Source: Schmidtea nova (Eukaryota). From it: DNA of 64,000 bases. Position 1 is the first letter of the stretch. Every line of letters starts with the position of its first letter. The stretch is from contig CM097883.1 of NCBI GenBank assembly GCA_044892505.1, positions 155,124,001-155,188,000 of the forward strand. The letters are read 5' to 3'. Made by a program: the position numbers and the translations under genes. The notes below the pieces were generated by a model. That model was not told the origin of the DNA, did no database searches, and worked only from the letters and a program-made list of their open reading frames with translations. This document shows positions 10,849-45,673 of the stretch, one piece after another.

Positions 10849-10894
10849 TTAATTAAATAATATAATAACATATAATTATAACGGAGGCACTACA
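10389..10894 (-). repeat. 5' LTR (506 bp) with TATA-like TATATAAAAAAA ~40 nt upstream of the ATG at 10770
   Basis: Direct repeat of 4499-5004, followed by the PBS. Confidence 0.95.
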
Positions 10895-21449: not shown

Positions 21450-21640
21450 ATGTAATTTCCTCTAGCTTATTTATGTACTTTATCTACGATTTCTCCTAGG
21501 ATTTCCAATGAATGTTTCGCATCCTTGAACTGTGATATTATTTCTCTCGCTTTTTCTGCTATTGCTTCTAACCTTCCGTTATAGTCGGCATTTGCATTGA
21601 ATAAAATTGATGGATTCTCTATCGGTTCTATTGTTTGCCG

Positions 21641-23343: not shown

Positions 23344-24019
23344 TTTGGAATTTAGGCGACTATGCACCTAACATGGGGTAATTGCACATAGGGTATTTGC
23401 AATTTAGATTGTGATTTTGTTGGGAAACTTCGTGTAATTGATAAGTTGAGAAATCAGCGTGATTCCACATGCATAGAACGTAACTAGAATAGTGATTTTT
23501 ACTAGCATAATTTTCCGACACGATATGGGTTGAATTTAGCGATAGTAGAGACATCGGATAAAGGAATTCGAGTAACCATCCAGAGTGTCACATCACGACC
23601 ACTTCAACAAGGATATTTTCGAGGGTAGGAATTGATACGTTTGAGGCAGTAACAATATTCAATTGTACCGAACTCCCATAAAGGTAGTTAAAATTAGATA
23701 AATGAATGTCGTGAATATTAATGCAAGTGACACAGGATAATTTTTTCGAATTAGTCTAATTGTTTGAGTATACATAGACAAATACCGAGATCGATAATGA
23801 GTGATTACCAGCAGTATGGGACGAATAGTGTCAGCACACATTTTAGCAAGAGATACAAAATATTTAGATCGATCCCAGTGTGGTAATATGGTTAATTATC
23901 GTGACAATTAAGGTGACAATTTCGTTTAATTTTTCGTTTATAAATATTTTTGGGATTGTAGAATATTTAAAAAATGGAACAAAGTGTTCATTAGTCTAAG
24001 CACACTATCTATTTTCGAA

Positions 24020-24468
24020 ATGGCAAGATTGACGCGCCGACACATTGGCCGCTCAAGGACATCCCGTCAGTCGTCAGCGATGAAATCAACTACCACGTGA
24101 GGATGCGGCGACAGGAATTCCTCCAGCCAGCCACGTTCGGTCTCTGGAAGCTGGAGGAATTCAAAGTCTATTGGCAACGCTCCGATGATTTCAATTTTCC
24201 GTAACTACGAGATGACACCCACACACCGAGATGGTTAATCTATTTCCAGCCTATTGGGATGCGAAAGCTAAACGAGTTGGGTTATATTCTGCTGGACAAG
24301 CCCCGCCATCTCCGAACTGGCAAGAGCATAGGATATTCGAACCTTCCATTTAAGTTTCAGAAGAAAAGAGGCATCTCAAAAGAGAGCCGACAATTTGAGT
24401 GCAGGTGCATTTACACACGAAGAACCCCACGAGAATTGAATAGGGAAGATCATCGCTGTGTAAAATAA
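24020..24468 (+). pseudogene. Third, distant member of the PLKxIP family, in the opposite orientation, with one internal TAA
   Basis: My translation: NGKIDAPTHWPLKDIPSVV..ATFGLWKLEEFKVYWQRS..*..HTPRWLIYF..LGYILLDKP. It aligns loosely with LPLKYIP / FSLL..ITWHGS / IPGRFRIYY..FVMDPAP. Confidence 0.5.
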
Positions 24469-25318
24469 CGAAAAGCATGATCAAAGAATAAAATTGATAT
24501 CAGAATAAAGAAAATAATTTATTAAAATGTTATAGGAAAAATCCCCATTGAAATATTGGAATAATAACAGAGATAGGAATAAAAATAGGATAAATTAAAT
24601 TTGATTGTTTTAATCAATCAATTAATAAACAAAAATCAATGGATACACACATTATTTGACGGAATTAAAAACAAATATTTTAGAAATAAATAAATCAAAT
24701 TATAAAATAAAAATTACAAAAAATAAATAAATAATCAGTTATTAAAGCTAATAAATTAAGTTTAATAGTTACTATAAGTTTATATTTTCGAGTGTTAATG
24801 TAAAGGGATATCAAATGCTTATGTGTGTTATAATTATTTAGATGTTTAGAAAATTGTTGGCGTGTCGTATTAGAAATAACTTTCCATTATTAGTCTTCTA
24901 GGATCATCGGTTGTCATCCTCTCCTATCTATGCTCTCACTAGGGTTCGACACACACCCGTAAATACCCTATTTATTTACGTTGGTGCTGTGTATGACGGC
25001 CGACCGCAAATCGACAGGTGAGCTCCTTCACAGGAACTACTCTCGATTTGTCGTTTGTTCAGGTTCTACCAGACCGATAAATGATCATTTTCTTTTCTTC
25101 TCCTCACACTTTCGCTGGTCACTACTTTCGCGTGGCGTTCGTCAATCTATGATTTAACTCTCGCTACTCTTTGTTCGTTGGAAAACCTTATGAAAAGTCC
25201 CTACCACTACGTTTATTAGTTATAAAAGAATTCAAATCAAAACATAACGAATTATTAAACTTTACATATAATGGTTCATTGATTAACACATTACAACAAT
25301 TATCACATTTCTGTCCTT

Positions 25319-25765
25319 TTACTGTTTGGGGATCATTGATGACGTTCGGTTCTGTTGCTCCTCAAATCGCGGCTTGGCCCTGTGCCGACGTTTCCTTTTC
25401 TCCTGTTGGGTATCTTGGACTGCTACCTCAGCATTCGGTCCATGCACGTTCTCTGGATACCATTCAGTAAAGGTGATCGGTCTAATCAGCCCTTCTGACT
25501 CCGTCATCACAAATTTCTGCGTCAGATGTTTTTTACAATTCTTTAGCTCCATCTGTACTGCGGTCAACTACAATCGACAGTCGTCCAATGCCCTGGTTGT
25601 TCGCAGAAACTTATTCACTATCTTCATTTCTCCCGGGGAGAATAATTTCCCCTCCAAATATAGGATTCGTCGCTTTAGACTCTCAATAGTGCGGAGAAAA
25701 GCTTTAGAGTCTTCTTTCTCCAACAACTCTGTCTGGTGGTTGGCTTGAATTGATCGTTGGCACAA
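25319..25765 (-). pseudogene. LTR-encoded coiled-coil/basic ORF (LIRP family) split by one TAG at 25568-25570
   Basis: LKRRILYLEGKLFSPGEMK..RALDDCRL*LTAVQMELKNCKK..LIRPITFTEW..EKRKRRHRAKPR. Confidence 0.75.
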
Positions 25766-26112: not shown

Positions 26113-26565
26113 TCAAGCAATGTAAGGACTATATGGTAAGTCTGTGGGGTTATCAGACGGTGCGGGACTCAGGACGAATCGTCCCATCTGCCAGAGGTCT
26201 TCTTGAGGAATTGCCCCTGCATATTGTATTAGATATCTTCCCGGGATTTCAGTTGGGGTTTCTACAAAAAACAACGGACAATCTGGTGGGCACTCTTGAT
26301 CTATATTTATCGGCCACTCCTGGCTCCCATGCCAGATGACCGTATAGGGGCTATCACGAAATAGGCTGAAAGATGCGGTCTGCTCCGTACTCTCGAATGT
26401 CCTCGGGTGGTTCTCCAATATTTCTCGGGCAAGGTCCGTTGGGATACACTTCAACGGCATCGCCAGAATCAGGTGATTGTTATAATTGTCTGAAGTATGC
26501 TCGTTCCTCGTGGCAGATGCCTCTCCAGTTGCCGGATTTAATCGTAATGACGTATAACTATTCAT
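26113..26565 (-). CDS. LTR-encoded PLKxIP-family protein (likely ATG at 26565)
   Basis: Homologous to 15968-16516. The ATG is preceded by TTTATAG|G. Confidence 0.7.
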   Translation of the reverse strand: MNSYTSLRLNPATGEASATRNEHTSDNYNNHLILAMPLKCIPTDLAREILENHPRTFESTEQTASFSLFRDSPYTVIWHGSQEWPINIDQECPPDCPLFFVETPTEIPGRYLIQYAGAIPQEDLWQMGRFVLSPAPSDNPTDLPYSPYIA

Positions 26566-27401
26566 CCTATAAACAAATATTAATAATAATTTAAATGAGT
26601 TTCTACTTAAGTACTCTCGATGATTTATGGGCAAACGGTAAATTAGAATAAACGTTAAGCGATACTTAGGTCCCCTTGTCCTAACGTTGGGATACCTGTA
26701 AACTCGGTAAACTCGATTTTTACAGTACCTAAATAAAATGGATATTGGATTTTCAAAAAAAGGGATTCTGTCGGTTCTGGATTGGGTTAAAACAAAAATA
26801 GTAAATTAAACAAAACGCTCTAGGGATTCCTCCATCCAAGACCTAACATAAAAAGCTTACATATCCACGAGCACCCTCGATCATTTCCCTGTAATAATCG
26901 AGTTGGAAATGTGCAAGGTGTTTGAACAATGATGGGCAGGTGAGCTCTATTGCTAAAACTACTCCCCATTTATGTTCACGGGTTCGTCTCGCTGCCGATA
27001 GAAGGACTTACGCTTTAACTTTAATCTATCCGCCTCCATTATCTTTCATTTTAATGTTTCTTTTAGCCCCCTTTCTTTACAATATTTTTCAACTTTCAAC
27101 TTTTGTTTCAGCCCCTTTCTTTACAATATCTTTCAACTCTCAACTTTTCTTTCAGCCCCCTTCTTTACAATATCAACAAATAATCTCTAATCAATTACAA
27201 TTTATTATCTCTTTAATGTTTCTATTGTTTATTAGATTTATGTTAATCTTATTGTTAATTCTAATGTATAGTTAATTTATTCTATATTTTCCTTTAAATT
27301 ATTTTAAATTTTTAATAAATCACATTATTTTCTATACTTTACCATAAAATAAATACAAACAAAAATTATTTAATAAGCAAAATTCACAAATCACAAAATT
27401 T

Positions 27402-27995
27402 CTAATCAAAATATTTAGTAATGTCTTCATCCGATATTGCAAAGTTCATGGTTAGATCAATCTCGGGAATTTCTTTTGATTGTTGTGCCAATTGCTGGAG
27501 AACTTGTTTCTTCCAGCGACGCTGGCGTGCTCCCATCTTGCTCTTCTTCTTCCTTTTACCTTCTGGATTTGTCGTGTTCTTTGGTGTACTTGCTGCTATT
27601 GTTATTGCACGAACCTGAGATGGTTCCTCGGTGTTTGTTCCTTTTGTGCATCCTGCTTTCTCGTCAGCCCAATGCTGATAAGTGATTGGTCGAATGAGCT
27701 GGCTGAGCTCCTGAGTTAAATACGATGCCGTTACAGATTTTAGACATTTCTTTAGTTCCATCTTCGTCGCGTCCAATTCCATTTGGATCTCCTCGTTGGC
27801 TCGCTGTGAGCGTTGATTTTTTATGATTTGTGTTTTCATCTGCTCTGGACTGAACCAGCTTTTCTTCAGGTTTGAGATTATGCCATCGGCTTCTTTTATT
27901 TTTTCCGATTTCCGTAACATTTCTTTTTCCAGGCTGCGAATTATCCTCCATGCTTTATCCAATTCGGCTTGATTAGTTGCTGTGTTGGCTGACAT
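27402..27995 (-). CDS. LTR-encoded 197-aa coiled-coil protein with a Lys/Arg-rich C-terminal motif (LIRP family), 3' LTR copy
   Basis: Intact in both LTRs; WFSPEQMK, LIRPITY, GKRKKKSKMGARQRRWKK. Confidence 0.8.
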   Translation of the reverse strand: MSANTATNQAELDKAWRIIRSLEKEMLRKSEKIKEADGIISNLKKSWFSPEQMKTQIIKNQRSQRANEEIQMELDATKMELKKCLKSVTASYLTQELSQLIRPITYQHWADEKAGCTKGTNTEEPSQVRAITIAASTPKNTTNPEGKRKKKSKMGARQRRWKKQVLQQLAQQSKEIPEIDLTMNFAISDEDITKYFD

Positions 27996-28730
27996 TCTCT
28001 AAAATTCAAGATGGTTTATTAACATGAAATTGGTAGTCTTGATTCGAACGATTCTCATACTTTTGACAGTTATTAATTGTTAATTCAGGAAGAGAAAATG
28101 ATTTACCTATTACACTTTCAACACTGTCGCTATGTACAGCGATCAGATACATTTATTTCATAATATATTTTATTTATTCACGCCTGTGCTATATACAGCA
28201 TTCAGGTTACCAAATTATTTAAATAAACTAAGATCCACTGCCCTATGTACAGGGTTCAGGATAAGCCATTATATTTAATTATTTATGTGGAATGTTTGAA
28301 CCTATAGCCTATTGCTGCTATGTTACTTGCGTAGTAGATCACTACGTTATTAGAGTTATCGATTTTTATATTGTTATTAAAAAATATATTTTGTACAAAT
28401 GCTTAACCGTGTATCTGCCGCTCTATGCCCACAAACCCCAGATGTGACAATCGAAAAATATAGGTGAACACTCGGTGAATCTCAAGGTAAAATCAGATTA
28501 ATAAAATCACAGCTATATCTGTCTCAAACTAAAATCAAACTCAACCCAACTATAAACTTATAAAATCAATTCGGTTATAAAATAAAAACTTCAACTGGCT
28601 ATACTCCAGTGAAAAATAAGGTTAGAAATCAAAAAATAAAAATTCCTACCCTCTTCACGGCGCTTTACACCGGTCGGACGGCCCAACTGTACGGAGCAGT
28701 CGTTTCTACTCGGCACAGTATGCCTCCATT

Positions 28731-29008
28731 TCACCGATTGCACGGTGATCGGAGCCCCTTAAATCATACGTAATTTTCTACTATAACTACGGTATATAAA
28801 TAATATATATTCGCCTCCTTCCACTGATTGCACAGTGGAAGAAGCTCGACCCAAAAATATTCATAAAAGAATGTATACTTATACGTATTTGTTAGCATTC
28901 TACCATAAGGTTGTCTCCTTCCACTGATTTCACAGTGGAAGAAGCTTAATAAAATATAAATAGGTATATAGATATCTTTGTCTCCTTCCACCGATTTCAC
29001 GGTGGAAG
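28731..29008. repeat. Four stem-loops with a shared hexaloop ATT(G/T)CA (second set at 40072-40349)
   Basis: TCACCG/CGGTGA at 28731-28748; CTTCCACTG/CAGTGGAAG at 28818-28841 and 28918-28941; CTTCCACCG/CGGTGGAAG at 28985-29008. Confidence 0.9.
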
Positions 29009-29140
29009 AAGCTTGAATACTTCTAAATTCAAAGAAAAGAATAAATCCTAGATAATATTTCATAAAGTTTATTGATAATCAAATAATGGCTAACAGAAAT
29101 CATAAAACAATAGTAACAAAATTATCAAAAATTCAAAAAT

Positions 29141-29290
29141 CCATACCTGTTAGTTTTTTCAATAAAATTGTCTCACAAAAGTTGTCAATAACAAAATGTT
29201 GAAAAATATCATACATTGAATTTAACTGAATCTGGATCAGTATTTATACTGACCAGATCAGATGCTGAACCAATCAGCGTGAAGCTGATT
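29141..29290 (-). promoter_or_regulatory. Putative LTR core promoter and major splice donor (CCAAT-like box, TATAAATA 29241-29248, Inr-like TCAGTT 29224-29229, CAG|GTATGG donor at 29146); same layout at ~40482-40630
   Basis: Motifs read directly. The TATA+TCAGT arrangement recurs in LTR-A and LTR-C. Function is inferred. Confidence 0.55.
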
Positions 29291-29824
29291 ATCAGATCAG
29301 CACAAATAATAAATTTTATTAACGTTAAAATCAATTGATTTTGTTGTCAATTGCTAGCAATTTGCTATTTTGATTTTTATTATTTTTTGTAATTCTACTT
29401 ATTTGCTTTACTTTCTTTTTTATTTAAATATAATTAAATATCATCTTTCTTTAACACTTTTACATTTTCCATTTACTTTCTTCTAATTTTGATATTAAAT
29501 TAATATTCTTTATTACATTTTAATTCGTTTTTTACTGATATTTCTCGTAATTATATTCATTTAATTTGTTCCTATTTTTTCTTATTATTCTTATTATTTA
29601 TGCTAAATGTGGACCAAATGGTGGATCCAACATCACTCGGGGACCCCTAAAATTGCGTCCCGCAATTAATTATACACTATTACTTGTACTCAACATTCAT
29701 AAAAAATTTTACGTTTGATACATAAGCATAAAGATTCACATAAGGTGAGTTTATTCTATACGTAATCACGAAAAAAATATAAAGAAAATTCAGATAATTG
29801 TTAATCAAATATTTTGTCAAGTAT

Positions 29825-30388
29825 TTATGGTTTATACAAATAGTTCATAACTCGCACTGGATTGGACTGGTTCTGTGGAATTGCTGGTAATTCGTATTGG
29901 GTTTGTATTCTGTTGAGCTGATTTCTCATTTGTCTTCGGGCATTGTCATCATGTGCTGTTGTTTGGTTGATGATTGATTGTTTTTGTTTAAGAACTTTTA
30001 TTCTGTATACTGCGATGAGAATGGTAATTGCGCAGGTTGTTGTACTAATTGTTAATACGATTATAATCGCAACGATCCATCGCTCTTGGTATTGCATTTC
30101 TGCTCGATGTAAATTCTTTATAGTTTCTTTACTTTCTTTTAGGGTTTTTCGAATCTTCTCTAATTTGTTATTGATTTTGCACAGGGTTTGTTGCGTTGAT
30201 ACTGGGTTAGGTGCTGTTGACAATTGAATTTGAGAGATTTCTCTGACTGTTCCTTTTAATAGATTATCTATTTCTTTATAGATTTTATCGGGTAAGACTT
30301 GTAGATTTTCTTTTGATATCGGACGGTCTTCTCTTTGTTGGGTGATCTCGATTACGTTTAGGATTATCAGTATTGCGAGTTTCTTCAT
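29825..30388 (-). CDS. Small predicted type-I membrane protein (signal-like N-terminus, coiled coil, TM, cytoplasmic tail) in the env position
   Basis: MKKLAILIILNVIE; TM WIVAIIIVLTISTTTCAITILIAVY followed by RIKVLKQK; tail contains YELP and NYLY. Confidence 0.7.
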   Translation of the reverse strand: MKKLAILIILNVIEITQQREDRPISKENLQVLPDKIYKEIDNLLKGTVREISQIQLSTAPNPVSTQQTLCKINNKLEKIRKTLKESKETIKNLHRAEMQYQERWIVAIIIVLTISTTTCAITILIAVYRIKVLKQKQSIINQTTAHDDNARRQMRNQLNRIQTQYELPAIPQNQSNPVRVMNYLYKP

Positions 30389-30461
30389 TTCACTTTACAA
30401 ATTTGTCAATACAGTTTGACATTGTTATTTTACAGATATTTACAACGAATTTTTCGCTTCT

Positions 30462-31565
30462 TTAAACTAACGACTCATTGGGTTCGTGAAAACCTTCATC
30501 TTGAGGTTCCACTTGGTTTGTAGGGGGTGGTAACCACACTATCGTGTTTCTCCACATTGTTACTTCGTCTCGATAGAAGTGTGATAATTGGATTTCTTCA
30601 TCCAACAGATATTCTAAATAGTTTGATTGTTCTGTTAATGCTTCGATCTGTTTTTCTAATTCTGTTATTTTTTTGTTTTTCTCTTCCTCTTCCATCATTT
30701 TTATTACTGCCTTGGTGATATCTGTCTCTTTTGGTGGTGTTAATTTTTGTATCAGTTTTTGTTTCAACTCTTCATTTTCTTTGGTTAAATTTAATAAATT
30801 TTCCTCATAGCTTTGTTTTGCTTCCTCTAATTTTAATAAATTTTCTTCATAGCTTTGTTTTGCTTCTTCTAATCTTTCTTTAGTTTTCTTTAATTCTATC
30901 TTCTTTTGAGTGATTACTCCTTGATAACCATTAATATCGCGCTTCATATCTTCCTCTTTCTGCATCCCTGCTCTGAGGTTTGCATCTGATTGTTGTTTAC
31001 TGAAATACAATTCTCTTTCCGATCTTTCAATCTGGTGCATAAGTTGTTTAATTTTTCCTGCTTGCTCTCTGATGAATTGTTGTCTCTTTTTATTCCATTT
31101 TTTGCTCGATATTTCCTGATAGGTTCTCTGTTCTAATTCCTCTTTTAATTTATCGATTTCTTCAAATAATTTCCAATCATCGCTGTACGCCGTTCTTTCG
31201 ATTATTTCTCTTGCTTTCGTATAAGATTCTTTCGCTTCTTTTTTCCAATATCTTGCTTGCTCGGTAATGGAGTACATTTTCCGTTCCATTTCTGTTCGTT
31301 CTCTCTCTCTTTCTTCTCGTCGTTCTTTCATCATCTTTTTATAATATTCTTTTTGTTTCTCCAATAATTCATATAATTCGTCTATTTTATCTTGACTTAA
31401 TTGCTTTAATCTTTTGGCTTCTGTTATTTGTTCGGCTTGTCTTTCTACTTCTTTTTGTTTGTGGTAATATGCGTGGATCCAACTTTCAATTTGTTCTAAA
31501 TGCTCACAAATAACTTCATCTTGATGTTCGGTTACTTCTTGTAAACTGATTTCGACGTTTCCCAT
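30462..31565 (-). CDS. Coiled-coil cargo protein of unknown function, 367 aa, with a 14-aa internal duplication
   Basis: E/K/Q-rich heptads; EEAKQSYEENLLKL / EEAKQSYEENLLNL. Confidence 0.75.
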   Translation of the reverse strand: MGNVEISLQEVTEHQDEVICEHLEQIESWIHAYYHKQKEVERQAEQITEAKRLKQLSQDKIDELYELLEKQKEYYKKMMKERREERERERTEMERKMYSITEQARYWKKEAKESYTKAREIIERTAYSDDWKLFEEIDKLKEELEQRTYQEISSKKWNKKRQQFIREQAGKIKQLMHQIERSERELYFSKQQSDANLRAGMQKEEDMKRDINGYQGVITQKKIELKKTKERLEEAKQSYEENLLKLEEAKQSYEENLLNLTKENEELKQKLIQKLTPPKETDITKAVIKMMEEEEKNKKITELEKQIEALTEQSNYLEYLLDEEIQLSHFYRDEVTMWRNTIVWLPPPTNQVEPQDEGFHEPNESLV

Positions 31566-31670
31566 TTTCTATAATTACAAATATTTTCAATCAGGCTACT
31601 TTTATTATTTTTGTTTATTTATCATTTTATATTGTTTTGTACAGTTTATTTACACGATTGTTTTCTCTTG

Positions 31671-33026
31671 CTACGCCAACCATCCTTTTCTATCTGCCTT
31701 CTCGTTCCTTTCCATTTCTATGTATAAGGTGTCCTCATACAATAATCCCCATATCTTGCTTTGTAATACAAAGTGTGGTTCTCCACTTGCTAATCCACAT
31801 TCTTCTGTTGGTCTGTTACTCGTAACTGCTCCTTTTTCTGTCGTGAATCTCTTTTCTATGGTTTCGTTTAAACCCCTGATTTTTATCATTACTCCTACTC
31901 CTATTGGCCAATCGATTAAATCGTCATATTCTCCTTTGCAAAACGCAAAAAATATTGATAGGTGTTTTCCCATACTTTTCCCATCTCCGTTTGGATATAC
32001 TTTCAATCTCACTTTAGCCCCGTTTTTCCATAAGTAAAATGGTGGGCTTAGTACCGCAGTTTTCTTGAAGCTTCGTGCATCTTCCAATTTATTTCGAAAA
32101 TCCGTTATTTTCCATACATAAGGTGCTATTGGTAAATCTTTTTTCTCATCAATTTCTTGTATTAACTTGTTATATTGCACTTTCATTCCTTTTGCTAATT
32201 CCTTGATGGCTATTATTTTCTTTTCCATCTTTTCTCGGGTTAGTTCAAATTGTTCTCTCGTTTCTAATAATAGGTTCATCATTATTTTATGAGATTCTAC
32301 TTCCTTTTCTAATTTCTGAATTGTTCTATCCGTCATTTCAATATGATTGATTGCTTCTGTTTCTAAATGTTGTTTCATATTTTGTTGAGACTTCTTTTCC
32401 TTGCATCCATATCTGTTGTAAGGACATTCTCTTGGTATTTCTGTACACTTTTTCCAATGTTCTCGTAATTTCACTTCTTCGGTAATTTCACATTTGTTTG
32501 GGCACACTCCTACATACTGTTCGCATATTCTCTCTTCTTTTTTATTGATGTGCTCTTCTTCAATTTTTCTCCTTGTTTCTCGAATTTCGCAATATTCACA
32601 TGCGATTTCTTCCTCTTTGCATTCATCTCTGTGTTTCTCTTTGTCTTTTAAAATTATCGTTTCTTTACACTTTTCACATTCGCTTCTCTTTTCTTCACAA
32701 TTTTCTATATGATTTTCAATTTCACTGATTTGTCCTTGCCATATGCACGGTGGATTTATACATTCAATTAATATGCTCATAATTTCTCTCTGAGTTGCTC
32801 TATCTGGTCTTGTTTCGTCTAATACTATTTGTCCCTCTTTACATTCTGGACATTCTGTTATTTTCTTTAGTTCCAACATTTGTACACATCTGGTGCATAA
32901 TTTACATCCGCAGGCGGTTTGCTTCGGTTTTCGTAATAAATTATTACAATATCCACATACAAATCTCTTGTTCCACTTTCTGTTTGCTGCTCTCAAAATC
33001 TCGACTGCTCGTTCCTCTTTATCCAT
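31671..33026 (-). CDS. Intronless full-length TRAF-like protein (RING, TRAF zinc fingers, coiled coil, MATH)
   Basis: CGYC..LLRKPKQTACGCKLCTRC..CPEC; ECINPPCIWQG; CPNKC; CPYNRYGC; YVWKITDF..SPPFY..KVRLKVYPNGDG..HLSIFF..GEYDDLIDWP. Confidence 0.93.
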   Translation of the reverse strand: MDKEERAVEILRAANRKWNKRFVCGYCNNLLRKPKQTACGCKLCTRCVQMLELKKITECPECKEGQIVLDETRPDRATQREIMSILIECINPPCIWQGQISEIENHIENCEEKRSECEKCKETIILKDKEKHRDECKEEEIACEYCEIRETRRKIEEEHINKKEERICEQYVGVCPNKCEITEEVKLREHWKKCTEIPRECPYNRYGCKEKKSQQNMKQHLETEAINHIEMTDRTIQKLEKEVESHKIMMNLLLETREQFELTREKMEKKIIAIKELAKGMKVQYNKLIQEIDEKKDLPIAPYVWKITDFRNKLEDARSFKKTAVLSPPFYLWKNGAKVRLKVYPNGDGKSMGKHLSIFFAFCKGEYDDLIDWPIGVGVMIKIRGLNETIEKRFTTEKGAVTSNRPTEECGLASGEPHFVLQSKIWGLLYEDTLYIEMERNEKADRKGWLA

Positions 33027-33118
33027 TTCTACAATAATACATACATTGATTTGTTCTTTGTTTTTGATTTTTCTAGAGTTTTATTTTTACATATATACAA
33101 TTTTCCGCTACAATTTGA

Positions 33119-33454
33119 CTATGGTTCGCTCGTTGAATCAGGTTCTATACCATTTTCTAATCCATTTATTACCCAATCTAGCCATTGACCTTTTGATTCA
33201 TCTCTTCTTGATAGTTGATTCATTTCCACTGTTTGTCTCAATCTCTGATTCTCTCTTGTCAGTTCTGTTATTATTCTCTGTTGCTCTTCTATTTTATGTA
33301 ATTGTTCAAAGATATTGTTGTAGCAATCTGCTAATATATTTTGCTTCTCTACCAATTGATTCTGTAGTGCATTGATTGATCGAACTAACGTTTCACATTG
33401 TGCTTTCCATCGTATAGTCAAAGTCATTTCGGTTGTTTCTCCTTGTACATTCAT
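33119..33454 (-). CDS. Small coiled-coil cargo ORF, 111 aa
   Basis: ATG behind a TTTTAG acceptor; heptad pattern; same strand and codon style as its neighbours. Confidence 0.6.
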   Translation of the reverse strand: MNVQGETTEMTLTIRWKAQCETLVRSINALQNQLVEKQNILADCYNNIFEQLHKIEEQQRIITELTRENQRLRQTVEMNQLSRRDESKGQWLDWVINGLENGIEPDSTSEP

Positions 33455-33576
33455 TTTCTAAAATACATTATTATTTTTCTCTTTTCTCTTTTTATATACT
33501 CTATAATACTAATACCCATACTATATACGGTAATGCTTTGTAATTTACAATATTATTTACAGTCATATCCCACCCT

Positions 33577-35499
33577 CTATACTATCATCACTGCTTTTTC
33601 ATCGTGTCGCTCCTCGTCTTCTGTCTGTAAAAATGCTTCTCGGGGTAGTTTCGTCATCCCCGGAATCGTCTTGTTTACTTTATTAATTAATACTCCCACT
33701 TCCTCTTTTTCATCATATTCAAATCGAAATACATGATCGTTTGGCATGACTACCAACATCCCTTTTTGTTTAATAACTTCTTCGTTTTCTTGTACTATTT
33801 CTTTTTGGTTTTCTTCATCTTCCGGATTTGGGTTTATCTGGTTTGTTTCTGGTTCAATATCTTCCTTGTTATCTCTTGTTTGATTTGTTGCTCTCATCAT
33901 ATTAATTCTCAATGGTTGTCGTTCTCTTTCTTGTCGTTTCTGTTCGTCTTCTCTTTGTATTCTTGCCCATTCTTCAGCATGTCGTGCTTGACTTTCTCGA
34001 TTTAGTCGTTCATTTTCACTTTCCACTTTTCTCATCATATTCATTTGTTGTTGATTCGTTTGTTGGTTTCCTCTCGGTGTATTGTTTATTAATTCTGTTA
34101 ATCTTTGAACTTCTTGTAATAAATGTATTTCTTTGGTGGTACTTTTATTCTGGTTATAATTACTCTGTTGATTTTCAAAATTCTGACGGTTTCCGTTACT
34201 CTGTTGATTCGTATAATTTTGTCGATTTCCGTTGTTCGACCAATTCCTTTGCTGGTTGTTTTGTTGTTGGCAGTTCCTTGCCATATGACCTGATTGTCCA
34301 CAGTTATAACATGATCTTTGGTAACATCTATTCTCTGCATGTCCTTTTCTTCCACACTTTTTACAATTTAAATTCGCGAAACATTCTTGTTGCCAATGTC
34401 CTAACTTTCCACAGGTTTGACATTGCTTTGTCTGTCCTTGCGTACTATAATTATTTTGGTTTCTGTAATTTTGTATTTTGTTTCCTTCATTTCTCCTTTG
34501 AGGCGGTGGTCGGTTTAATTGTTGTGAATTCGGAATATGGTTATTTATCTTCATTGCTTGTTCATTTTGTGTCGTATCCATTGCTAGGTAAATTCTTCCT
34601 TCACTTCCGATCATATGTAATTCGAATCTGTTGGCAATTTCCAACGCTTCATCTATTGTTTTACAACCTTGGCATCCAACTTGTGCTCTAATATCGGGTC
34701 TTCTCAATCCTCCCACAAAAATTGCTGCCATTAATTCTGAACTCATTGGACTATTTTGATTAAATGCTAATTTAGCCAATTTCTTTAATTCACTTGCATA
34801 TACTGCATTTGATTCATTAACTTTTTGTTTCCTCATTGAAAATTCTGTAAATGCTTCATTTAATACTTTATTTATTCCAAACGTTTGCTGGAAAAAATTC
34901 TTTATCTTTTCCCAACTATCGAGTTGATCATCTGAATTTTTAGCTTCCAAATATAAATCTAACGCACTGTCTTTTAAATATAACTGAATTCTGCTTCTTA
35001 TCGTTTCTGGTTTCCATTTACATACTTCTACAAATATACCAAATTCTTTTAAAAACGTTTCTAACTTGCTGGCATCTCCATTGAATGGTTCTCCAGTAAA
35101 TTTATCTTTGATTTCTTCTTTATGTTCGTTCATTTCGATTCCGCTGTCTTGTGTCGTTTTACTCTCGTTTCCTCTTGTTTCACTAGTATGCTCGTTATTC
35201 GTTTCGTTTGAATTATTATCAATTTCTGCTTCTACTTCTTCTGTATTTATTGACTCGTTATCTGATGCTTCCGTATTATTATAATTATCGTAGGTTTCAC
35301 TTGAACTTTCTTCTGTTTCACTTTCGTTAGTTTTTGTTAATTTACTGTTTTCGATTTTTGACTTTTCTACTATTACTCTTCTTGATTTACTTCCTTTAGG
35401 ATTTGTTTTCTTTGTAACACTGGTTGCTCTTTGTTTCGATTTACTTCTCTGGGAGTTATCAACTTTTTCGATTGTAGCACTAACTGCTCTTGATCTCAA
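33577..35499 (-). CDS. gag: Gag with Ty3-type capsid region and three CCHC zinc knuckles; true N-terminus probably extends to an acceptor at 35646 across a 1-nt frameshift
   Basis: FNGDASKLETFLKEF..W..LYLKDSALDLY; CQTCGKLGHWQQEC, CKKCGRKGHAENRC, CYNCGQSGHMARNC. Confidence 0.9.
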   Translation of the reverse strand: MRSRAVSATIEKVDNSQRSKSKQRATSVTKKTNPKGSKSRRVIVEKSKIENSKLTKTNESETEESSSETYDNYNNTEASDNESINTEEVEAEIDNNSNETNNEHTSETRGNESKTTQDSGIEMNEHKEEIKDKFTGEPFNGDASKLETFLKEFGIFVEVCKWKPETIRSRIQLYLKDSALDLYLEAKNSDDQLDSWEKIKNFFQQTFGINKVLNEAFTEFSMRKQKVNESNAVYASELKKLAKLAFNQNSPMSSELMAAIFVGGLRRPDIRAQVGCQGCKTIDEALEIANRFELHMIGSEGRIYLAMDTTQNEQAMKINNHIPNSQQLNRPPPQRRNEGNKIQNYRNQNNYSTQGQTKQCQTCGKLGHWQQECFANLNCKKCGRKGHAENRCYQRSCYNCGQSGHMARNCQQQNNQQRNWSNNGNRQNYTNQQSNGNRQNFENQQSNYNQNKSTTKEIHLLQEVQRLTELINNTPRGNQQTNQQQMNMMRKVESENERLNRESQARHAEEWARIQREDEQKRQERERQPLRINMMRATNQTRDNKEDIEPETNQINPNPEDEENQKEIVQENEEVIKQKGMLVVMPNDHVFRFEYDEKEEVGVLINKVNKTIPGMTKLPREAFLQTEDEERHDEKAVMIV

Positions 35500-36247
35500 T
35501 TTATTTCTTTGTGAATTATTAACTTCTTGGTTTTTAACTGTTCTTGATCTCGGTTTACTTTTCTTTAATTTATCAATTTTTCTGTTTCTCTGTTATCGTA
35601 TTCTGATTGATTGGTTGGTTGTTTTGACTTGTTCTGTTCCGTATATCTAAATTAAAAAGTCACTTCAACGATACATCATTGTTATCGTTGCGCTTTTATT
35701 CCTCATTATTGGGTTTCCATTGTTTCCCCATTCCCGGTTTCCCCTTTATTTAAGTCTATTTAAATTATCTATTCACTGGTAACAATTATCTATATGGTCG
35801 TAATAATTATCTATCGTTATCAAATAAATTCATTACTTTTCCCTCAGTCTCCAAATTTAATTTGTCGCTCAAACGCTTTAATTCCCTTGAGTTCTCCTGA
35901 CTCAATTATCATTTTATCACTATTTACTATATCATCGTTACTCATTATTCCCACTATTGGTCATCTCTAATTTCTCATCATTACTCACTATTCTCACTAT
36001 TTCTACCGGTTTTTACGGTCAACTCTAATTTCTCCTATTCTTATTTCTACTCGTATGCATACTGAATCTCTAGTTTACCTAATCATCTTTACTTTTATTA
36101 CTCAAACTCTAATATTCACTATTCTTACTTCGTCGACGACTACAACTCTAGGTTCATATTCCTTTCGTTGCTTATCCGGATAATTTATACAACTCTAGGT
36201 TCATATTCCTTTCGTTGTCATTTAATTTCACACAATTGCAAACCTGG

Positions 36248-36664
36248 GTTCAAATTCCTTAGGTTGCCTATAATCATGAGTTCATATTCTCATGTTACTA
36301 TTATTCACTGCAATCATAAGTTCACATTCTTATGTTGCCTACAATCATGAGTTCATATTCTCATGTTACTATTATTCACTGCAATCATAGGTTCAAATTC
36401 TTATGTTGCCTACAATCATGAGTTCATATTCTCATGTTGCTATTATTCACTGCAATCATAGGTTCAAATTCTTATGTTGCCTACAATCATGAGTTCATAT
36501 TCTCATGTTGCTATTATTCACTGCAATCATAGGTTCAAATTCTTATGTTGCCTACAATCATGAGTTCATATTCTCATGTTGCTATTATTCACTGCAATCA
36601 TAGGTTCAAATTCTTATGTTGCCTACAATCATGAGTTCATATTCTCATGTTGCTATTATTCACT
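36248..36664. repeat. Tandem array of ~6 x 71-bp units, each made of two related subunits
   Basis: The unit start GTTCA(A/C)ATTC recurs at 36248, 36320, 36391, 36462, 36533 and 36604. Confidence 0.95.
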
Positions 36665-37009
36665 GTTATCATATTAACTCTTATTCTCTTTATTTCTTAC
36701 TGATCAGTTTTATATTCTCTCTTTTTATTTATTTTTTCTGCGCGCACTTAAACCTCATTAGATTGTCCCTACCTTTCACCCCAACCAAAATATACAAAAA
36801 GATCGCATTGGTCTACTAATGCAAGATGTGGTGATCAGTCACATCACAAAAGCTTTCCAATTTCCGCGATGGGCCCCTTTCTATACATCTCGGGTAAGTT
36901 GATCAGTTGGTTCCTCCCAATGGGTGCTTAACGGACTACTCGTGAGCAGCTCAAAAATTATTTATACATATCAATTGTTATTATGATTTCTGTCATTGCC
37001 ATTATCAAC

Positions 37010-37210
37010 TCTCATTTTAAATTCTCATTATTAACTCTCATTATCAATTATCATATTAATTCTCATTATGAATTCTCATATTAATTCCTATTAAGAATTC
37101 CCATATCAACTCTCATTATGAATTCTCATATTAATTCTCATTATGCATTATCATATTAATTCCCATTATGAATTATCATATTAATTCTCATTATCAATTC
37201 TCATATTTTA
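37010..37210. repeat. Degenerate short-period tandem repeat (ATTCTCATTATGA/ATTCTCATATTA-like)
   Basis: Read directly. Confidence 0.7.
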
Positions 37211-37249
37211 TTTATTACGAATAATATTACTAAATTCACCATTTATTTA

Positions 37250-37711
37250 TTATAAATACACAGTAATTCTTTCGTCTATTTCGAGATTGCACATCGGGCA
37301 TTTGTCGCAGTTGGCTGCACAGATTCCACAAAACCGAAAATGTCCAAAAGGTAAAAACATGATTTTATTCTCTCTTTCTCGACATATGTAACAGAGTTTA
37401 AATTTCTTAGCTGTCTCAGTTCCTTGTATCGTCCACTTGTGGTATGTTGGAGTTAATTGTTGTTCTAGCTGTCTGCATTTTATGTTTACATCAGCATTTT
37501 CTAATCTCGTTCGGTACCACTTGTATCTAGTTGTTATATCTATTTTGTCTACTCTTTCCATTATTTTTATCAGCTCTGTTGTCTCTTCAGTTTGTGTCAT
37601 GGGTTCTTTGAATCCGGATTCTCTTATTCGACTTATTTTCTCGCATAATTCGTCATATGTTTTGTTTTCCGTGTTTAGAAATTCTTCCGTTTCTTTTACT
37701 TTTTCGTTCAT
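37250..37711 (-). CDS. 153-aa protein with a C-terminal IAP-type RING finger (third Cys replaced by Phe), no BIR domain
   Basis: LCYICRERENKIMFLPFGHFRFCGICAANCDKCPMCNLEIDERITVYL* matches the IAP C-terminal pattern C..C....F.PCGH...C..CA....CP.CR..I....V(Y/F). Confidence 0.85.
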   Translation of the reverse strand: MNEKVKETEEFLNTENKTYDELCEKISRIRESGFKEPMTQTEETTELIKIMERVDKIDITTRYKWYRTRLENADVNIKCRQLEQQLTPTYHKWTIQGTETAKKFKLCYICRERENKIMFLPFGHFRFCGICAANCDKCPMCNLEIDERITVYL

Positions 37712-38081
37712 TGCTAAATAATTGATATTGTTAATATGTTTGTTGTTTTATTTGTTATTCAAAATTAAAGATTTCAACATCTTGTTTCTCTATTTGCTCG
37801 ATTTGTATCATTTAAAAGTAGTGGTACATTTCGTTTTCTGATGTTAAACCTCTCCCTGTTTCATCAAATTGTCGTCCCGACATATTTATTTATGTTTATT
37901 TATTTTATTTTAATATCAATTATTAATCATCTGTTGTTATAGTTATTCAATCATTGTTTTTCAAAATTCTCTGTTGATATTGTTTTTCACTTTTACAAAA
38001 TTCACTTATATTATTGGCTGAGGGGCATTTTAAAACTCCTGGTTATTATTGGATTCAATTTTTCGCACAAAAACCATTTTG

Positions 38082-38099
38082 ATCCCGGCTGAGCCCCCA
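38082..38099 (-). promoter_or_regulatory. Primer-binding site, tRNA-Pro
   Basis: TGGGGGCTCAGCCGGGAT vs the canonical Pro PBS TGGGGGCTCGTCCGGGAT (16/18), 9 nt from the LTR. Confidence 0.85.
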
Positions 38100-38108
38100 A
38101 ATTTATGT

Positions 38109-40974
38109 TGTCGGTTCTGGATTGGGTTAAAACAAAAATAGTAAATTAAACAAAACGCTCTAGGGATTCCTCCATCCAAGACCTAACATAAAAGGCTTAC
38201 ATATCACACGAGCACCCTCGATCATTTCCCTGTAATAATAGAGTTGGAAATGTGCAAGGTGTTTGAACAATGATGGGCAGGTGAGCTCTATTGCTAAAAC
38301 TACTCCCCATTTATGTTCACGGGTTCGTCTCGCTGCCGATAGAAGGACTTACGCTTTAACTTTAATCTATCCGCCTCCATTATCTTTCATTTTAATGTTT
38401 CTTTTAGCCCCCTTTCTTTACAATATTTTTCAACTTTCAACTTTTGTTTCAGCCCCTTTCTTTACAATATCTTTCAACTCTCAACTTTTCTTTCAGCCCC
38501 CTTCTTTACAATATCAACAAATAATCTCTAATCAATTACAATTTATTATCTCTTTAATGTTTCTATTGTTTATTAGATTTATGTTAATCTTATTGTTAAT
38601 TCTAATGTATAGTTAATTTATTCTATATTTTCCTTTAAATTATTTTAAATTTTTAATAAATCACATTATTTTCTATACTTTACCATAAAATAAATACAAA
38701 CAAAAATTATTTAATAAGCAAAATTCACAAATCACAAAATTTCTAATCAAAATATTTAATAATGTCTTCATCCGATATTGCAAAGTTCATGGTTAGATCA
38801 ATCTCGGGAATTTCTTTTGATTGTTGTGCCAATTGCTGGAGAACTTGTTTCTTCCAGCGACGCTGGCGTGCTCCCATCTTGCTCTTCTTCTTCCTTTTAC
38901 CTTCTGGATTTGTCGTGTTCTTTGGTGTACTTGCTGCTATTGTTATTGCACGAACCTGAGATGGTTCCTCGGTGTTTGTTCCTTTTGTGCATCCTGCTTT
39001 CTCGTCAGCCCAATGCTGATAAGTGATTGGTCGAATGAGCTGGCTGAGCTCCTGAGTTAAATACGATGCCGTTACAGATTTTAGACATTTCTTTAGTTCC
39101 ATCTTCGTCGCGTCCAATTCCATTTGGATCTCCTCGTTGGCTCGCTGTGAGCGTTGATTTTTTATGATTTGTGTTTTCATCTGCTCTGGACTGAACCAGC
39201 TTTTCTTCAGGTTTGAGATTATGCCATCGGCTTCTTTTATTTTTTCCGATTTCCGTAACATTTCTTTTTCCAGGCTGCGAATTATCCTCCATGCTTTATC
39301 CAATTCGGCTTGATTAGTTGCTGTGTTGGCTGACATTCTCTAAAATTCAAGATGGTTTATTAACATGAAATTTGTAGTCTTGATTCGAACGATTCTCATA
39401 CTTTTGACAGTTATTAATTGTTAATTCAGGAAGAGAAAATGATTTACCTATTACACTTTCAACACTGTCGCTATGTACAGCGATCAGATACATTTATTTC
39501 ATAATATATTTTATTTATTCACGCCTGTGCTATATACAGCATTCAGGTTACCAAATTATTTAAATAAACTAAGATCCACTGCCCTATGTACAGGGTTCAG
39601 GATAAGCCATTATATTTAATTATTTATGTGGAATGTTTGAACCTATAGCCTATTGCTGCTATGTTACTTGCGTAGTAGATCACTACGTTATTAGAGTTAT
39701 CGATTTTTATATTGTTATTAAAAAATATATTTTGTACAAATGCTTAACCGTGTATCTGCCGCTCTATGCCCACAAACCCCAGATGTGACAATCGAAAAAT
39801 ATAGGTGAACACTCGGTGAATCTCAAGGTAAAATCAGATTAATAAAATCACAGCTATATCTGTCTCAAACTAAAATCAAACTCAACCCAACTATAAACTT
39901 ATAAAATCAATTCGGTTATAAAATAAAAACTTCAACTGGCTATACTCCAGTGAAAAATAAGGTTAGAAATCAAAAAATAAAAATTCCTACCCTCTTCACG
40001 GCGCTTTACACCGGTCGGACGGCCCAACTGTACGGAGCAGTCGTTTCTACTCGGCACAGTATGCCTCCATTTCACCGATTGCACGGTGATCGGAGCCCCT
40101 TAAATCATACGTAATTTTCTACTATAACTACGGTATATAAATAATATATATTCGCCTCCTTCCACTGATTGCACAGTGGAAGAAGCTCGACCCAAAAATA
40201 TTCATAAAAGAATGTATACTTATACGTATTTGTTAGCATTCTACCATAAGGTTGTCTCCTTCCACTGATTTCACAGTGGAAGAAGCTTAATAAAATATAA
40301 ATAGGTATATAGATATCTTTGTCTCCTTCCACCGATTTCACGGTGGAAGAAGCTTGAATACTTCTAAATTCAAAGAAAAGAATAAATCCTAGATAATATT
40401 TCATAAAGTTTATTGATAATCAAATAATGGCTAACAGAAATCATAAAACAATAGTAACAAAATTATCAAAAATTCAAAAATCCATACCTGTTAGTTTTTT
40501 CAATAAAATTGTCTCACAAAAGTTGTCAATAACAAAATGTTGAAAAATATCATACATTGAATTTAACTGAATCTGGATCAGTATTTATACTGACCAGATC
40601 AGATGCTGAACCAATCAGCGTGAAGCTGATTATCAGATCAGCACAAATAATAAATTTTATTAACGTTAAAATCAATTGATTTTGTTGTCAATTGCTAGCA
40701 ATTTGCTATTTTGATTTTTATTATTTTTTGTAATTCTACTTATTTGCTTTACTTTCTTTTTTATTTAAATATAATTAAATATCATCTTTCTTTAACACTT
40801 TTACATTTTCCATTTACTTTCTTCTAATTTTGATATTAAATTAATATTCTTTATTACATTTTAATTCGTTTTTTACTGATATTTCTCGTAATTATATTCA
40901 TTTAATTTGTTCCTATTTTTTTCTTATTATTCTTATTATTTATGCTAAATGTGGACCAAATGGTGGATCCAACA
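38109..40974 (-). repeat. 5' LTR of element B (2866 bp)
   Basis: Direct repeat of 26769-29632, adjacent to the PBS. Confidence 0.97.
38743..39336 (-). CDS. LTR-encoded 197-aa LIRP-family protein, 5' LTR copy
   Basis: One residue differs from the 27402-27995 copy (ITK vs IIK). Confidence 0.8.
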   Translation of the reverse strand: MSANTATNQAELDKAWRIIRSLEKEMLRKSEKIKEADGIISNLKKSWFSPEQMKTQIIKNQRSQRANEEIQMELDATKMELKKCLKSVTASYLTQELSQLIRPITYQHWADEKAGCTKGTNTEEPSQVRAITIAASTPKNTTNPEGKRKKKSKMGARQRRWKKQVLQQLAQQSKEIPEIDLTMNFAISDEDIIKYFD

Positions 40975-42488
40975 ATTCTCTAAATGGGTTTTCTCGAATG
41001 TCGTCCCTCCTCTGGAAGTATAAATTCAATCTCAACTCTGGGGTATACGAAATGATGGTTTTCCACACAATCTTCAGGAAATGCCCCGCTTACTCTAACG
41101 CTGGTCATTTAGCCAGAAGTGTGATGATTGATGTTCACCCAAAAAATTTATAAAATCGGGAGTGCCCTGACACGGCCGCCGGACATTCTCTGTTCAACTC
41201 AACGTTCCTCAGATCCTACAGCAATCCCTATCTTTGTCCCACACTCAGAAGTGTGAACAAAAGAGCGAAATTACTGGAGAGCCAACAGTCCCTAGGATTG
41301 TCCAGACCCTCTGGTCGGTTAATATAAATTAATATTAAAAACAACACGAATTAGATTTAAAAATTTTTCAAAGTAATACAAAACTACTTACAAACAGTTT
41401 CCGGTTAATGATCAAATCCAAAAAAAATTTGGTTGCAAGATTTGGTCTCATTCGAGTGTTGAATGACTTCGAAATTATATGTCGCTAAAATGCTGCTTAG
41501 AAAAACTAATTAATGTATAATTAACGGGAAAATGCTAATCCGACTGACTTGAGCACTTTTTATATACAGTTTTTGCGCTAAAACAGCTAATGAAAATCGT
41601 TTTAGCCTTTAATTGACCAAAATAAATCGATTTTTTAATATTTTTATTTATTTGCATTTTTCTTAATTAATTTTCATTCCCTTTTGTTAATATTCCTGTT
41701 TAATTGTTATTTAATTAATTGAATTCCTATTTTTATACTTTTCCTCTTACTTCGTATTTTATTTCAGCTTTCTTTTTTTATTTCTTGTTTTAATCTTTGT
41801 ATTTTTGTTGTTATTATTCTCTTTTATCCTTTGCTAGTTTGTTTTTATTGTTTAATTATTGTTTTTTTCCTAATTATTATGTTATTTTGTGACTATTTCT
41901 GTGTTTTTGCTAACCCAACAAAATTGAATGGCTCAACAGTCTCCTTTAAAAATCACTGTGTAGGGACAGTTGGGGTGCTTGCTATATAAATGACTGTATG
42001 TGTGCGTGTGAATGTAAACAACTAACAAATAATTATAACCACAAAAAACAATTTTAATAATAACAACTTTTATTTGATTAAAGAAAAATGAAAAAGTAAC
42101 CAGTACTCACAATTTTATCGAATAATAATTTTGTTAGTTTTTTATTTCTTTTAGCTTCTATCGCTATAGATATTTTATCTTCCTTTTTAGATTTTCGTCG
42201 TATTGTTAGGCTTTTTTAAATATGAATCTTCAATCAATTCTTCTTGTATAGAAATCCCTTCCTCTATCTTTTTTCAGTAGGAAATAGAAATTTCTCTTAG
42301 TTAGTATTTTTCCTTAATCTTCCAAATCAATTTTTCAATTCTTGCTGTTGTTAGATTCTTTTTATTTTATTTAATCTAATTGTCATGAACAATTGATTTT
42401 TATTTTTTAATTTAATTTTTTATATTTATTTAAATTTCTATTATCCTCAAGGCATAATTGCCGCAAGGACGCCCTTACTAGTAATAAC

Positions 42489-43718: not shown

Positions 43719-45673
43719 ATAAATACGATTTAAAGTCGTTAACGAAATAAATAAAATTCTCTTGATATAAAAAATGTATTTTTAAAATAAAGCAGTTCGT
43801 TGATACTAAATTAAATTCTCACTCTTTTTTGAAAAAAACATCCAATTTATTTGCTTTGATTGTTGCTGCCTTTCTTCCGGGATCAGCCGTGACGCTTCTT
43901 TTAACATTTGCGCTTCGATTGAAATCCCCATCTATCTCACAGAGCTCATCTGTTAACCTTTCTATAGAAGAAAGGATACTAGTTAGATCGGCCGTATTAG
44001 GGGTTTACTATCATTTTCTTTATCATCTTCTATTGGATTTTCTAATTGAGTGCCATCTAATGCTTCCATAAACTCTGCTAATTCTTCATTTGAGAGTGGT
44101 TGGTCATGCACATTCAACAATCCAATCACATATTCAGTTGTCACATCTTCGAATCCACATTCTCGTGTACGCCTGATAATATCTTCTTTTATGTAATTGT
44201 TATCTACCTCTTCTACACTTGCATCTTGTATAAATCCAGGCAGAAGTTTACGGCAAACGCCGTTTAATTAATTGGTTGTCACTTCGTCCCAAGCAGATTT
44301 CAGATTTCTGATTCCTTTTTAAAAGTCGTATGACCGCCAATAATCTTTAACGGTCTGGTTGGAATTAGGATCTATCGGCTTAGTCAATGCTTTTAAGGTT
44401 ATGCGCCAGTACTACGCCAATACAACCCCCTGATCCGTGGGTTGTAATACGGAGGTTGTGTTAGGGGGCATGTAAATTAGATTGACTTTTAATCCCGTGT
44501 CTAATGTGTCAATATCTTTCAGATTTCCGGAGGCGTTATCTAATAGGATGATTGCTTTCTTTGGAAGGTTATTTCGCTCACAAAATTTAAGCACAGTAGG
44601 AAAAAAATTATTTTTATGTCAGTCTGAAAATCTCCTGAGTAACCCAGTGCTTTTTATTCCATCTCCAAAAAACTGGCAAGGAGTTTTTGTCAAGTCCTTT
44701 AAAAGCCCGTGGATTCTGAGAATGGTACACTACCATTGGCTTCAATTTTAAGGAACCAGAAACGTTTAATCCCAAGAGAACAGTTAGTCTATCTTTGGCT
44801 GCTTTAAACCCGGGAGCGCTACGTTCTTCTCGCGAAATAAAAGTTCTCGATGACAACTTCTTCCAATAGAGGCCTGTCTCATCGAAATTGAATATGAGAT
44901 CTGCAGGGTAAGCTGCTGCCGCTGCTACATCAACGCTCGTTGCTTCGCCGCTTAGTTTAGTGCTACGGATATTGGTTCGATATTTAAATCTCGTGAACCA
45001 CCCAGTGCTTGCCAAGAAAGTTTCGTCAGTGTTTTCTTGGGCCTTCAAATCAGAAAAAATCAACTTTGCTTTTTCGCAAATGACTGCTTGTGTTACAGGA
45101 ATATTTCTTTGATTGGTGTCATCAACCCACAATACTAACATTTTTTCCATTTTCTCTAAATTTGCTCCGGCTGTAAGTTAAGTGCTTTACACTTACAACA
45201 GTTGTTTGTAGAGCGGAATGTTTAATTTCTCGGCGTTTTTCATGATTGTTGTCACGTTGGAAAGGGGTAAATTTAGAGCTCTACAGACAAAAGGTCGGGT
45301 TTGGCCGTCTTCAATGCGTTTAACTACATCCATTTTCGTCTCCATACATATTGTTTTTCGTCTTTTTTTCGCACAATGTTTGGGTTTGGAATTATTATTG
45401 TCGCTCATAATGAAATTACAAATCGAATATTATTTCAAAATAATAAAATAAAAATTTAATTATCTTTTTCTTAAAAAAAAACTAAAACTAACTCGGAAAC
45501 AATTTTACATATACGATAGGCTGCACGCGTACACGGCAATAAAATAAAGAAACATGTAAAAGTGTGTCCCCTATTAAAATTGCGGCGCCTATTCTCGGCT
45601 GGTGCCGGCAGAACCGGACCGGCGTAATTGTGAATCGGCGTGACTTGTACCGGCACAAATCGATGTTTACCTG
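43526..45673 (-). mobile_element. Decayed pogo/Tigger (TIGD-like) DNA transposon
   Basis: Fragments: CENP-B HTH (45193-45408); HTH-Tc5 plus IFNFDETGLYWK..AAKDRLTVLL (44614-45150); LLDNA..MPPNTTSVLQPTDQGV (44412-44594). Degenerate TIRs CATGTAAACGTGGTTTTACGCC vs CAGGTAAACATCGATTTGTGCC (16/22), right end followed by TA. Confidence 0.85.

Follow-up and report, generated by a model that had tools for sequence, protein, structure and literature searches.

Structure of the 14.2-kb element

The window analyzed here is a 64,000-nucleotide (nt) stretch of the Schmidtea nova genome (GenBank assembly GCA_044892505.1, contig CM097883.1, positions 155,124,001 to 155,188,000, forward strand), and all positions below are counted from its first letter. 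Comparison of the window with itself revealed a single long direct repeat, which delimits a 14.2-kb long terminal repeat (LTR) retroelement at positions 26769 to 40974 (Table 1). Since every open reading frame (ORF) of the element lies on the minus strand, the right-hand LTR is the 5′ LTR. A preliminary description of this DNA had reported near-identical 2.86-kb LTRs with 5 to 7 differences, an ATTC target-site duplication, a proline primer-binding site (PBS), and the absence of protease (PR), reverse transcriptase (RT), RNase H (RH), and integrase (IN). These observations hold: the LTRs differ by 4 substitutions and 2 one-base indels, ATTC flanks the element on both sides, the PBS matches the tRNA-Pro(UGG) of the genome itself over its full length, and no PR, RT, RH, or IN domain was found between positions 26769 and 40974.

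The PBS lies 9 nt from the LTR end in the window copy; among 35 counted copies of its family, this distance is 6 nt in 21 and 9 nt in 14. Given these two distances, IN seems to use one or the other of two CA positions for trimming (38100 to 38108 in the window). Retroviral PBS-LTR spacing is usually 2 nt, shorter than both. The sequence at the position of the polypurine tract (PPT) is identical in all 9 copies compared, including copies of a sister family. The tRNA-Pro(UGG) genes occur in a 308-nt tandem array at C1:459.6 Mb, and the corresponding probe has 900 matches in the genome.

The best Protein Data Bank (PDB) matches of the RING ORF are the RING domains of XIAP and cIAP, although its likeness to XIAP, cIAP, and MYLIP is limited to amino acids (aa) 101 to 153. 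Inhibitor of apoptosis (IAP) proteins by definition carry at least one BIR domain, and no BIR was found by Pfam and PDB searches of the RING ORF or in ORF1 of one full-length copy. The preliminary assignment to an IAP-type RING holds for the RING itself, but the protein, a RING in which no BIR was found, falls outside the IAP definition. One zinc-ligand position of this RING is also substituted, a change private to the window copy: none of the 51 other motifs identified has it, and a single other copy differs there in another way.

The TRAF-like ORF matches zf-TRAF and MATH in Pfam and the RING-zinc-finger and MATH regions of TRAF2, -3, -5, and -6 in the PDB, and a protein search with it returned one distant match only. 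The 111-aa and 367-aa ORFs have no significant Pfam family. The 197-aa ORF within the LTR has a counterpart in the sister family and matches no known family; protein atlas look-ups with this ORF and with the likely transmembrane (TM) ORF yielded only unnamed matches below 0.9. The frame of the truncated ORF1 is open as far as position 35592, adding 153 codons (35134 to 35592) before the first ATG, and the same upstream frame is open in full-length copies and in the sister family. This pattern hints at a non-AUG or spliced start, although a codon-position test of the upstream stretch was not significant (P = 0.24). As originally described, the RING, TRAF, two coiled-coil, and TM frames are all open; the apparent Gag, however, is a deletion fusion, the RING bears the zinc-ligand change, and the LTR ORF had been overlooked.

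Table 1. Features of the 14.2-kb element, in window positions
Feature	Positions	Strand	Remarks
Target-site duplication ATTC, left	26765..26768	.	Matches right ATTC; 4-bp duplications in 35 family copies
3′ LTR, 2864 nt	26769..29632	-	TG..CA ends; 99.79% identical to 5′ LTR
197-aa ORF in 3′ LTR	27402..27995	-	Second copy of the LTR ORF; from ORF list
Conserved sequence at PPT position	29633..29661	-	G4-T-C4 core; not a classic polypurine tract
187-aa ORF, likely TM	29825..30388	-	N-terminal hydrophobic leader and one hydrophobic segment, from sequence
367-aa accessory ORF	30462..31565	-	Coiled-coil-like by sequence
TRAF-like ORF, 451 aa	31671..33026	-	Intronless, full-length; RING, zinc fingers, coiled coil, MATH
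111-aa accessory ORF	33119..33454	-	Coiled-coil-like by sequence
Truncated ORF1 (Gag), 518 aa	33577..35133	-	zf-CCHC, three CCHC knuckles; fused in frame to polyprotein end
Deletion junction	33614..33622	-	9-nt microhomology; single match in genome
Tandem repeat in leader	36237..36673	.	Unit of ~71 nt; from self-comparison
RING ORF, 153 aa	37250..37711	-	PF13920; IAP/MYLIP-type RING; no BIR
Primer-binding site, 18 nt	38082..38099	-	Exact complement of tRNA-Pro(UGG) 3′ end plus CCA
5′ LTR, 2866 nt	38109..40974	-	TG..CA ends; from self-comparison
197-aa ORF in 5′ LTR	38743..39336	-	Purifying selection in family
Target-site duplication ATTC, right	40975..40978	.	Matches left ATTC

Full-length copies of the family

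When the TRAF protein was compared with its own genome, 94 matches were scored, 84 of them at 80 to 100% identity and 10 at 71%. Gag searches identified open frames of up to 5,147 aa at 96 to 98% identity and a sister family at 81%. Our comparison set comprised 53 further family copies, whole or in part, and 4 sister-family copies. Full-length copies measure ~28 kb and are 96 to 97% identical to the window element; one has an ORF1 of 4,994 aa and a second an ORF1 of 4,962 aa. In the full copy, ORF1 encodes, in order, Gag with CCHC knuckles, a PF24664 fusion glycoprotein, RVP, RVT_1, RNase H, integrase, and an ankyrin (Ank_2) domain, and the four ORFs that lie downstream of it are those of the window element. 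The glycoprotein (aa 1627 to 2254; E values of 8e-31 and 8e-34) is in frame between gag and PR. Burro elements are also described with BCL2-like and SUMO-like domains before Env. Weak similarities within ORF1 here include a putative Bcl-2-like region, which matches Bcl-xL at an E value of about 0.5 (29 of 29 rows) and gave a single-sequence model with a pLDDT of 41, and a weak UBX-like match (E = 0.011).

The LTR termini, PBS, and PPT-position sequence are common to the window copy and RT-bearing copies, such that partners of the kind envisaged in the preliminary description do exist. Since these pol-bearing copies carry the cargo as well, the accessory genes are standard family equipment rather than a newly acquired kit. 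An [I/M]N-M-[L/M]-R-like motif recurs between the ORF1 domains of the full copy and may mark protease cleavage sites. One of these motifs precedes the ankyrin part, and the pol deletions of the family stop just short of it. The family is also abundant in four contig sets of unrecorded kind from one study, which yielded no usable junction or empty-site evidence among the pieces listed.

A 13.4-kb deletion seen once

A stretch of 13,428 nt that a full copy has in ORF1 is missing from the window element. The frame is kept, and aa 1 to ~507 of ORF1 run directly into the final ~14 residues of the polyprotein. Lost with this stretch are env, PR, RT, RNase H, integrase, and ankyrin, as well as the putative Bcl-2-like part. 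A 33-nt junction probe, allowing up to 2 mismatches, matched the 1.25-Gb genome once, namely, at the window itself, and the corresponding 2.1-kb gag-TRAF spacing occurs in 1 of 67 gag-TRAF pairs, again the window alone. Deletions seen once kept the frame in 3 of 7 measured cases, the window included; this is as expected by chance, and the kept frame of the window copy needs no selection to explain it. Of the 34 other copies for which the duplication could be matched, 26 have fewer LTR substitutions than the window copy, which argues that this copy has had time to spread. Its nearest neighbors change along its length and point to no single parent class. The deletion may have arisen in either of two ways between which the data do not decide: a template jump during reverse transcription, in which case Pol would have come from a helper packaged alongside, or repair at the microhomology once the copy had inserted.

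Amplified deletion classes and probable helper dependence

Although the window deletion is unique, deletions as such are common in the family. Spacings between gag and TRAF cluster at 15.5, 12.4, 10.1, and 7.1 kb. Copies of the 12.4-kb class (~25 kb in total) lack RT-RH-IN and keep env and PR, their deletions measuring 3,021 or 3,039 nt; an older pol deletion of 2,973 nt is present in 3 examined copies. The 10.1-kb class lacks env (deletions of 5,385 or 5,388 nt), and the 7.1-kb class has lost both env and pol. All five amplified junction types are in frame and keep PR and the ankyrin C terminus.

Genome-wide, with probe mismatches making every count a lower bound, pol-deletion junctions were found at 53 + 9 = 62 loci and RT at 16. 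None of the 62 has an RT probe match within 4 kb. The pol-bearing count relies on the RT probe; an earlier probe was dropped, as it also matched sister families and the older pol-deleted class. Env-deletion junctions occur at 15 + 7 = 22 loci, and the env probe matches 56 loci, 50 of which lack RT; conversely, 10 of the 16 RT loci lack an env probe match. Env and RT are together at only 6 loci. The two deletion junctions are together at 13 loci, which are mosaics of the two classes.

Among the deleted copies examined, most are flanked by a 4-bp duplication of their own, and their LTR pairs are mostly 99.5 to 100% identical, indicating that pol-deleted copies inserted after the deletion had arisen. 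An unbroken ORF1 of ~3,960 aa, together with the accessory ORFs, was present in 13 of 19 examined 12.4-kb copies, a fraction subject to the bias of choosing top matches. In the double-deleted copies, sequence to the left of the env junction is nearest to the env-deleted class in 7 of 9, whereas the 3′ half of PR is nearest to the pol-deleted class in 9 of 9, and the switch spans a ~480-nt protease interval. Double-deleted copies carry four env-junction variants, each of which also occurs in pol-bearing copies. At least two independent in-frame losses of pol occurred, with borders that nearly coincide; env also underwent in-frame loss, and recombination joined the two kinds of loss several times. 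The simplest reading of the mosaics is co-packaging with template switching.

These data indicate that the family is mostly non-autonomous and likely borrows enzymes from sister copies. The preliminary description had pictured the window element as a satellite that borrows Pol in trans; this idea does not suit the window copy, with its single junction and unique spacing, but it does suit the family, with 62 pol-deleted loci against 16 with RT. Likewise, of the refuting scenario of a one-off deletion derivative among copies that all contain pol, the first half describes the window copy well, while the second does not describe the others.

Selection on the accessory ORFs

The ratio of nonsynonymous to synonymous polymorphism (pN/pS) was calculated from variants common to at least 2 copies in 50 of 54 family copies, the 4 oldest having been dropped. 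The values range from 0.13 to 0.23 for the cargo (RING, 0.13; 367-aa ORF, 0.15; LTR ORF, 0.17; 111-aa ORF, 0.18; TRAF, 0.21; TM, 0.23), relative to 0.09 for the Gag core, 0.06 for env, and 0.01 for RT-RH. Third codon positions account for 57 to 67% of shared variants in the cargo ORFs, versus 33% and 43% in two noncoding controls. The ratio of nonsynonymous to synonymous divergence (dN/dS) to the sister family is 0.09 to 0.35 where dS is unsaturated; dS is saturated between the families for the RING and LTR ORFs. The accessory ORFs are therefore under purifying selection across the family, contrary to the neutral evolution raised earlier as a refuting case, which argues that the cargo helps the element replicate. 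This signal bears on benefit to the element and not on benefit to the host. Since copies differ by about 3% in gag and ankyrin whether they come from one deletion class or from two, it belongs to one recombining pool.

Status of the window copy

We conclude that the window element is, very probably, one copy of a giant Gypsy retrotransposon of the Burro type from whose polyprotein gene a single in-frame deletion took out 13.4 kb. It has no second copy in the assembly and is likely to be a dead end and not a satellite lineage, its cargo being the ordinary gene set of the family. Several points weigh against this conclusion. Gag and the accessory ORFs remain open, the PBS and both LTRs are kept, and the deletion is in frame; the private variants of the window copy (9 nonsynonymous and 7 synonymous) show no clear neutral decay; and the copy could, by analogy with plant TR-GAG elements, be mobilized in trans. 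One assembly captures fixed or germline copies only, missing rare, somatic, or population-specific daughters, and the copies compared were chosen from top search matches, which favors intact ones. Selection on the cargo is not assignable to pol-less copies in particular. The mosaics could stem from ectopic gene conversion instead of co-packaging. Finally, the sister Burro-type family has the same PBS and could serve as an alternative helper; it is young and, in contrast to the family of the window element, consists mostly of full-length copies (27 of 53 gag matches among those listed lie in open frames of ~5,100 aa).

Of the other explanations, the one that fares best, though we consider it unlikely, is that the window element founded a minimal Gag-plus-cargo satellite akin to TR-GAG that is mobilized in trans and has not yet spread in this germline. 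Its in-frame deletion, intact LTRs, exact PBS, and open Gag and accessory ORFs are what such a founder would have, the family clearly supports pol-less copies, and TR-GAG transposition is documented in plants according to the account in PMC8704663. A founder, however, should have left more than one junction match given LTR substitutions exceeding those of 26 of 34 other copies; moreover, PR and the ankyrin C terminus, which all five amplified junction types retain, are lost from the window copy, and the zinc-ligand change in its RING is private.

That the host keeps the window copy as a cell survival or immune cassette, by domestication or mutualism, is very improbable. Purifying selection on the cargo ORFs would be compatible with such a role, as would the expanded and expressed TRAF/MATH transcripts of S. 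mediterranea described in PMC6109357, but the selection signal is family-wide, as expected of any replicating element. The ankyrin domain and putative Bcl-2-like region have been lost, no BIR was found, the RING is altered, and the copy sits in or beside the relic of another Burro-like element. In a test described in PMC8532177, the smedwi-2 phenotype was no better after RNA interference (RNAi) against BURRO1, a result that is weak either way. Least credible of all is an assembly collapse of the missing 13.4 kb: the junction is bridged by no contig among the pieces listed, but the missing sequence is no tandem repeat, there is microhomology at the junction, and sister copies contain at least 7 other one-off internal deletions.

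To return to the preferred reading, the RNAs of the pol-deleted, env-deleted, and double-deleted copies are probably co-packaged, with RT and integrase provided in trans by the small number of copies that have RT, most of which lack env. The accessory proteins would likely tune host ubiquitin, TNF-type, and death signaling for the element's own benefit. A bolder and distinctly tentative extension is that the family is becoming a naturally split retroelement, in which env-bearing pol-less genomes and pol-bearing env-less genomes help each other within common particles and both keep a set of TRAF, RING, and membrane proteins under selection. Recombination within the short protease interval would then yield double-deleted cheaters again and again, with the window copy at the far end of this deletion series.

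On its own, the window element is ordinary. Its family is a clean natural record of an env-bearing invertebrate retroelement breaking into helper-dependent forms. The idea of borrowed Pol fits about 62 larger sister copies, and the recombining pool of env-less and pol-less genomes is the part worth following. It opens questions in RNAi-tractable animals: whether the defective genomes exploit the others or cooperate with them, whether Env remains in use, and what role the TRAF and RING cargo plays.

Surroundings of the element

The element sits in or beside an older Burro-like relic (20666 to 25723), with integrase-ankyrin remains at 20666 to 23339 (about 48% aa identity) and an LTR-ORF-like remnant at 25415 to 25723. 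A separate young Gypsy element at 4499 to 10896 has 508-nt LTRs (99.6% identical) and gag and pol ORFs on the minus strand. Two transposase-like ORFs, named by the look of their translations, are MULE-like (17286 to 18701, with inverted repeats nearby) and Tigger/pogo-like (44614 to 45177). The ORFs at 26113 to 26565 and 15968 to 16534 are related to each other (about 50% aa identity), have relatives beside two other examined loci, and are probably part of another repeat.

Comparison with known retroelements

Burro, or GYPSM1, elements are giant Gypsy LTR retrotransposons of planarians, reportedly covered by Jurka in 2007 and Grohme in 2018. We assigned the window family to the Burro type by comparing its domain layout with published descriptions. 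As portrayed in PMC6431247 (Arkhipova and Yushenova 2019), Burro elements have an ORF1 of ~5,000 aa with env in frame between gag and pol and carry RING, MATH/TRAF, and ankyrin cargo, for which interference with apoptosis and ubiquitination was already proposed (PMC6431247). The window family resembles them in its single ORF1, with Gag/CCHC, in-frame Env, PR-RT-RH-IN, and ankyrin, in its RING and MATH/TRAF cargo, and in its long LTRs. It differs in that TRAF is a separate, full-length ORF downstream of ORF1, whereas the same source places it inside ORF1 in S. mediterranea Burro1 and upstream in D. tigrina. The BIR listed there for Burro1 was not found here in the RING ORF or in ORF1 of one full copy, which points to a different Burro-type family. 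In addition, most window-family copies are pol-deleted, and full copies reach ~28 kb; the literature searched, with subscription papers outside its scope, contained no report of pol-less Burro classes. Burro1 of S. mediterranea is described as piRNA-controlled and intestine-enriched (PMC8532177). The TRAF/MATH expansion of that species is presented as a host feature (PMC6109357); the 84 + 10 TRAF copies found here suggest that part of this expansion may be retrotransposon-borne.

The window copy shares with the TR-GAGs characterized in PMC8704663 its LTRs, its Gag, and its lack of pol. It differs in that TR-GAGs are multicopy or shown to move, whereas the window junction is single copy and the element has five further ORFs plus the LTR ORF. 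For the family, a closer parallel is the mouse IAP 1Δ1 retroelement, which, as described in PMC6466679, has an in-frame internal deletion and a fused ORF, is non-autonomous and trans-complemented, and dominates new insertions; ETn is cited there as another trans-complemented defective element. The mouse element, however, is vertebrate, betaretrovirus-like, and env-less, while the dominant class here keeps env and PR without RT-RH-IN and recombines with an env-less pol-bearing class, and the window copy itself is not amplified. A competent minority and a defective majority, as seen here, also characterize the bovine ERVK[2-1-LTR] D types (PMC10924933) and canid CfERV-Fc1(a) (PMC6407205), whose shared deletions are interpreted in these reports as trans-complementation and co-packaging. 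The bovine D types are described as being without functional genes (PMC10924933), whereas ORF1 and the accessory ORFs are kept by those 13 of the 19 pol-deleted copies examined here.

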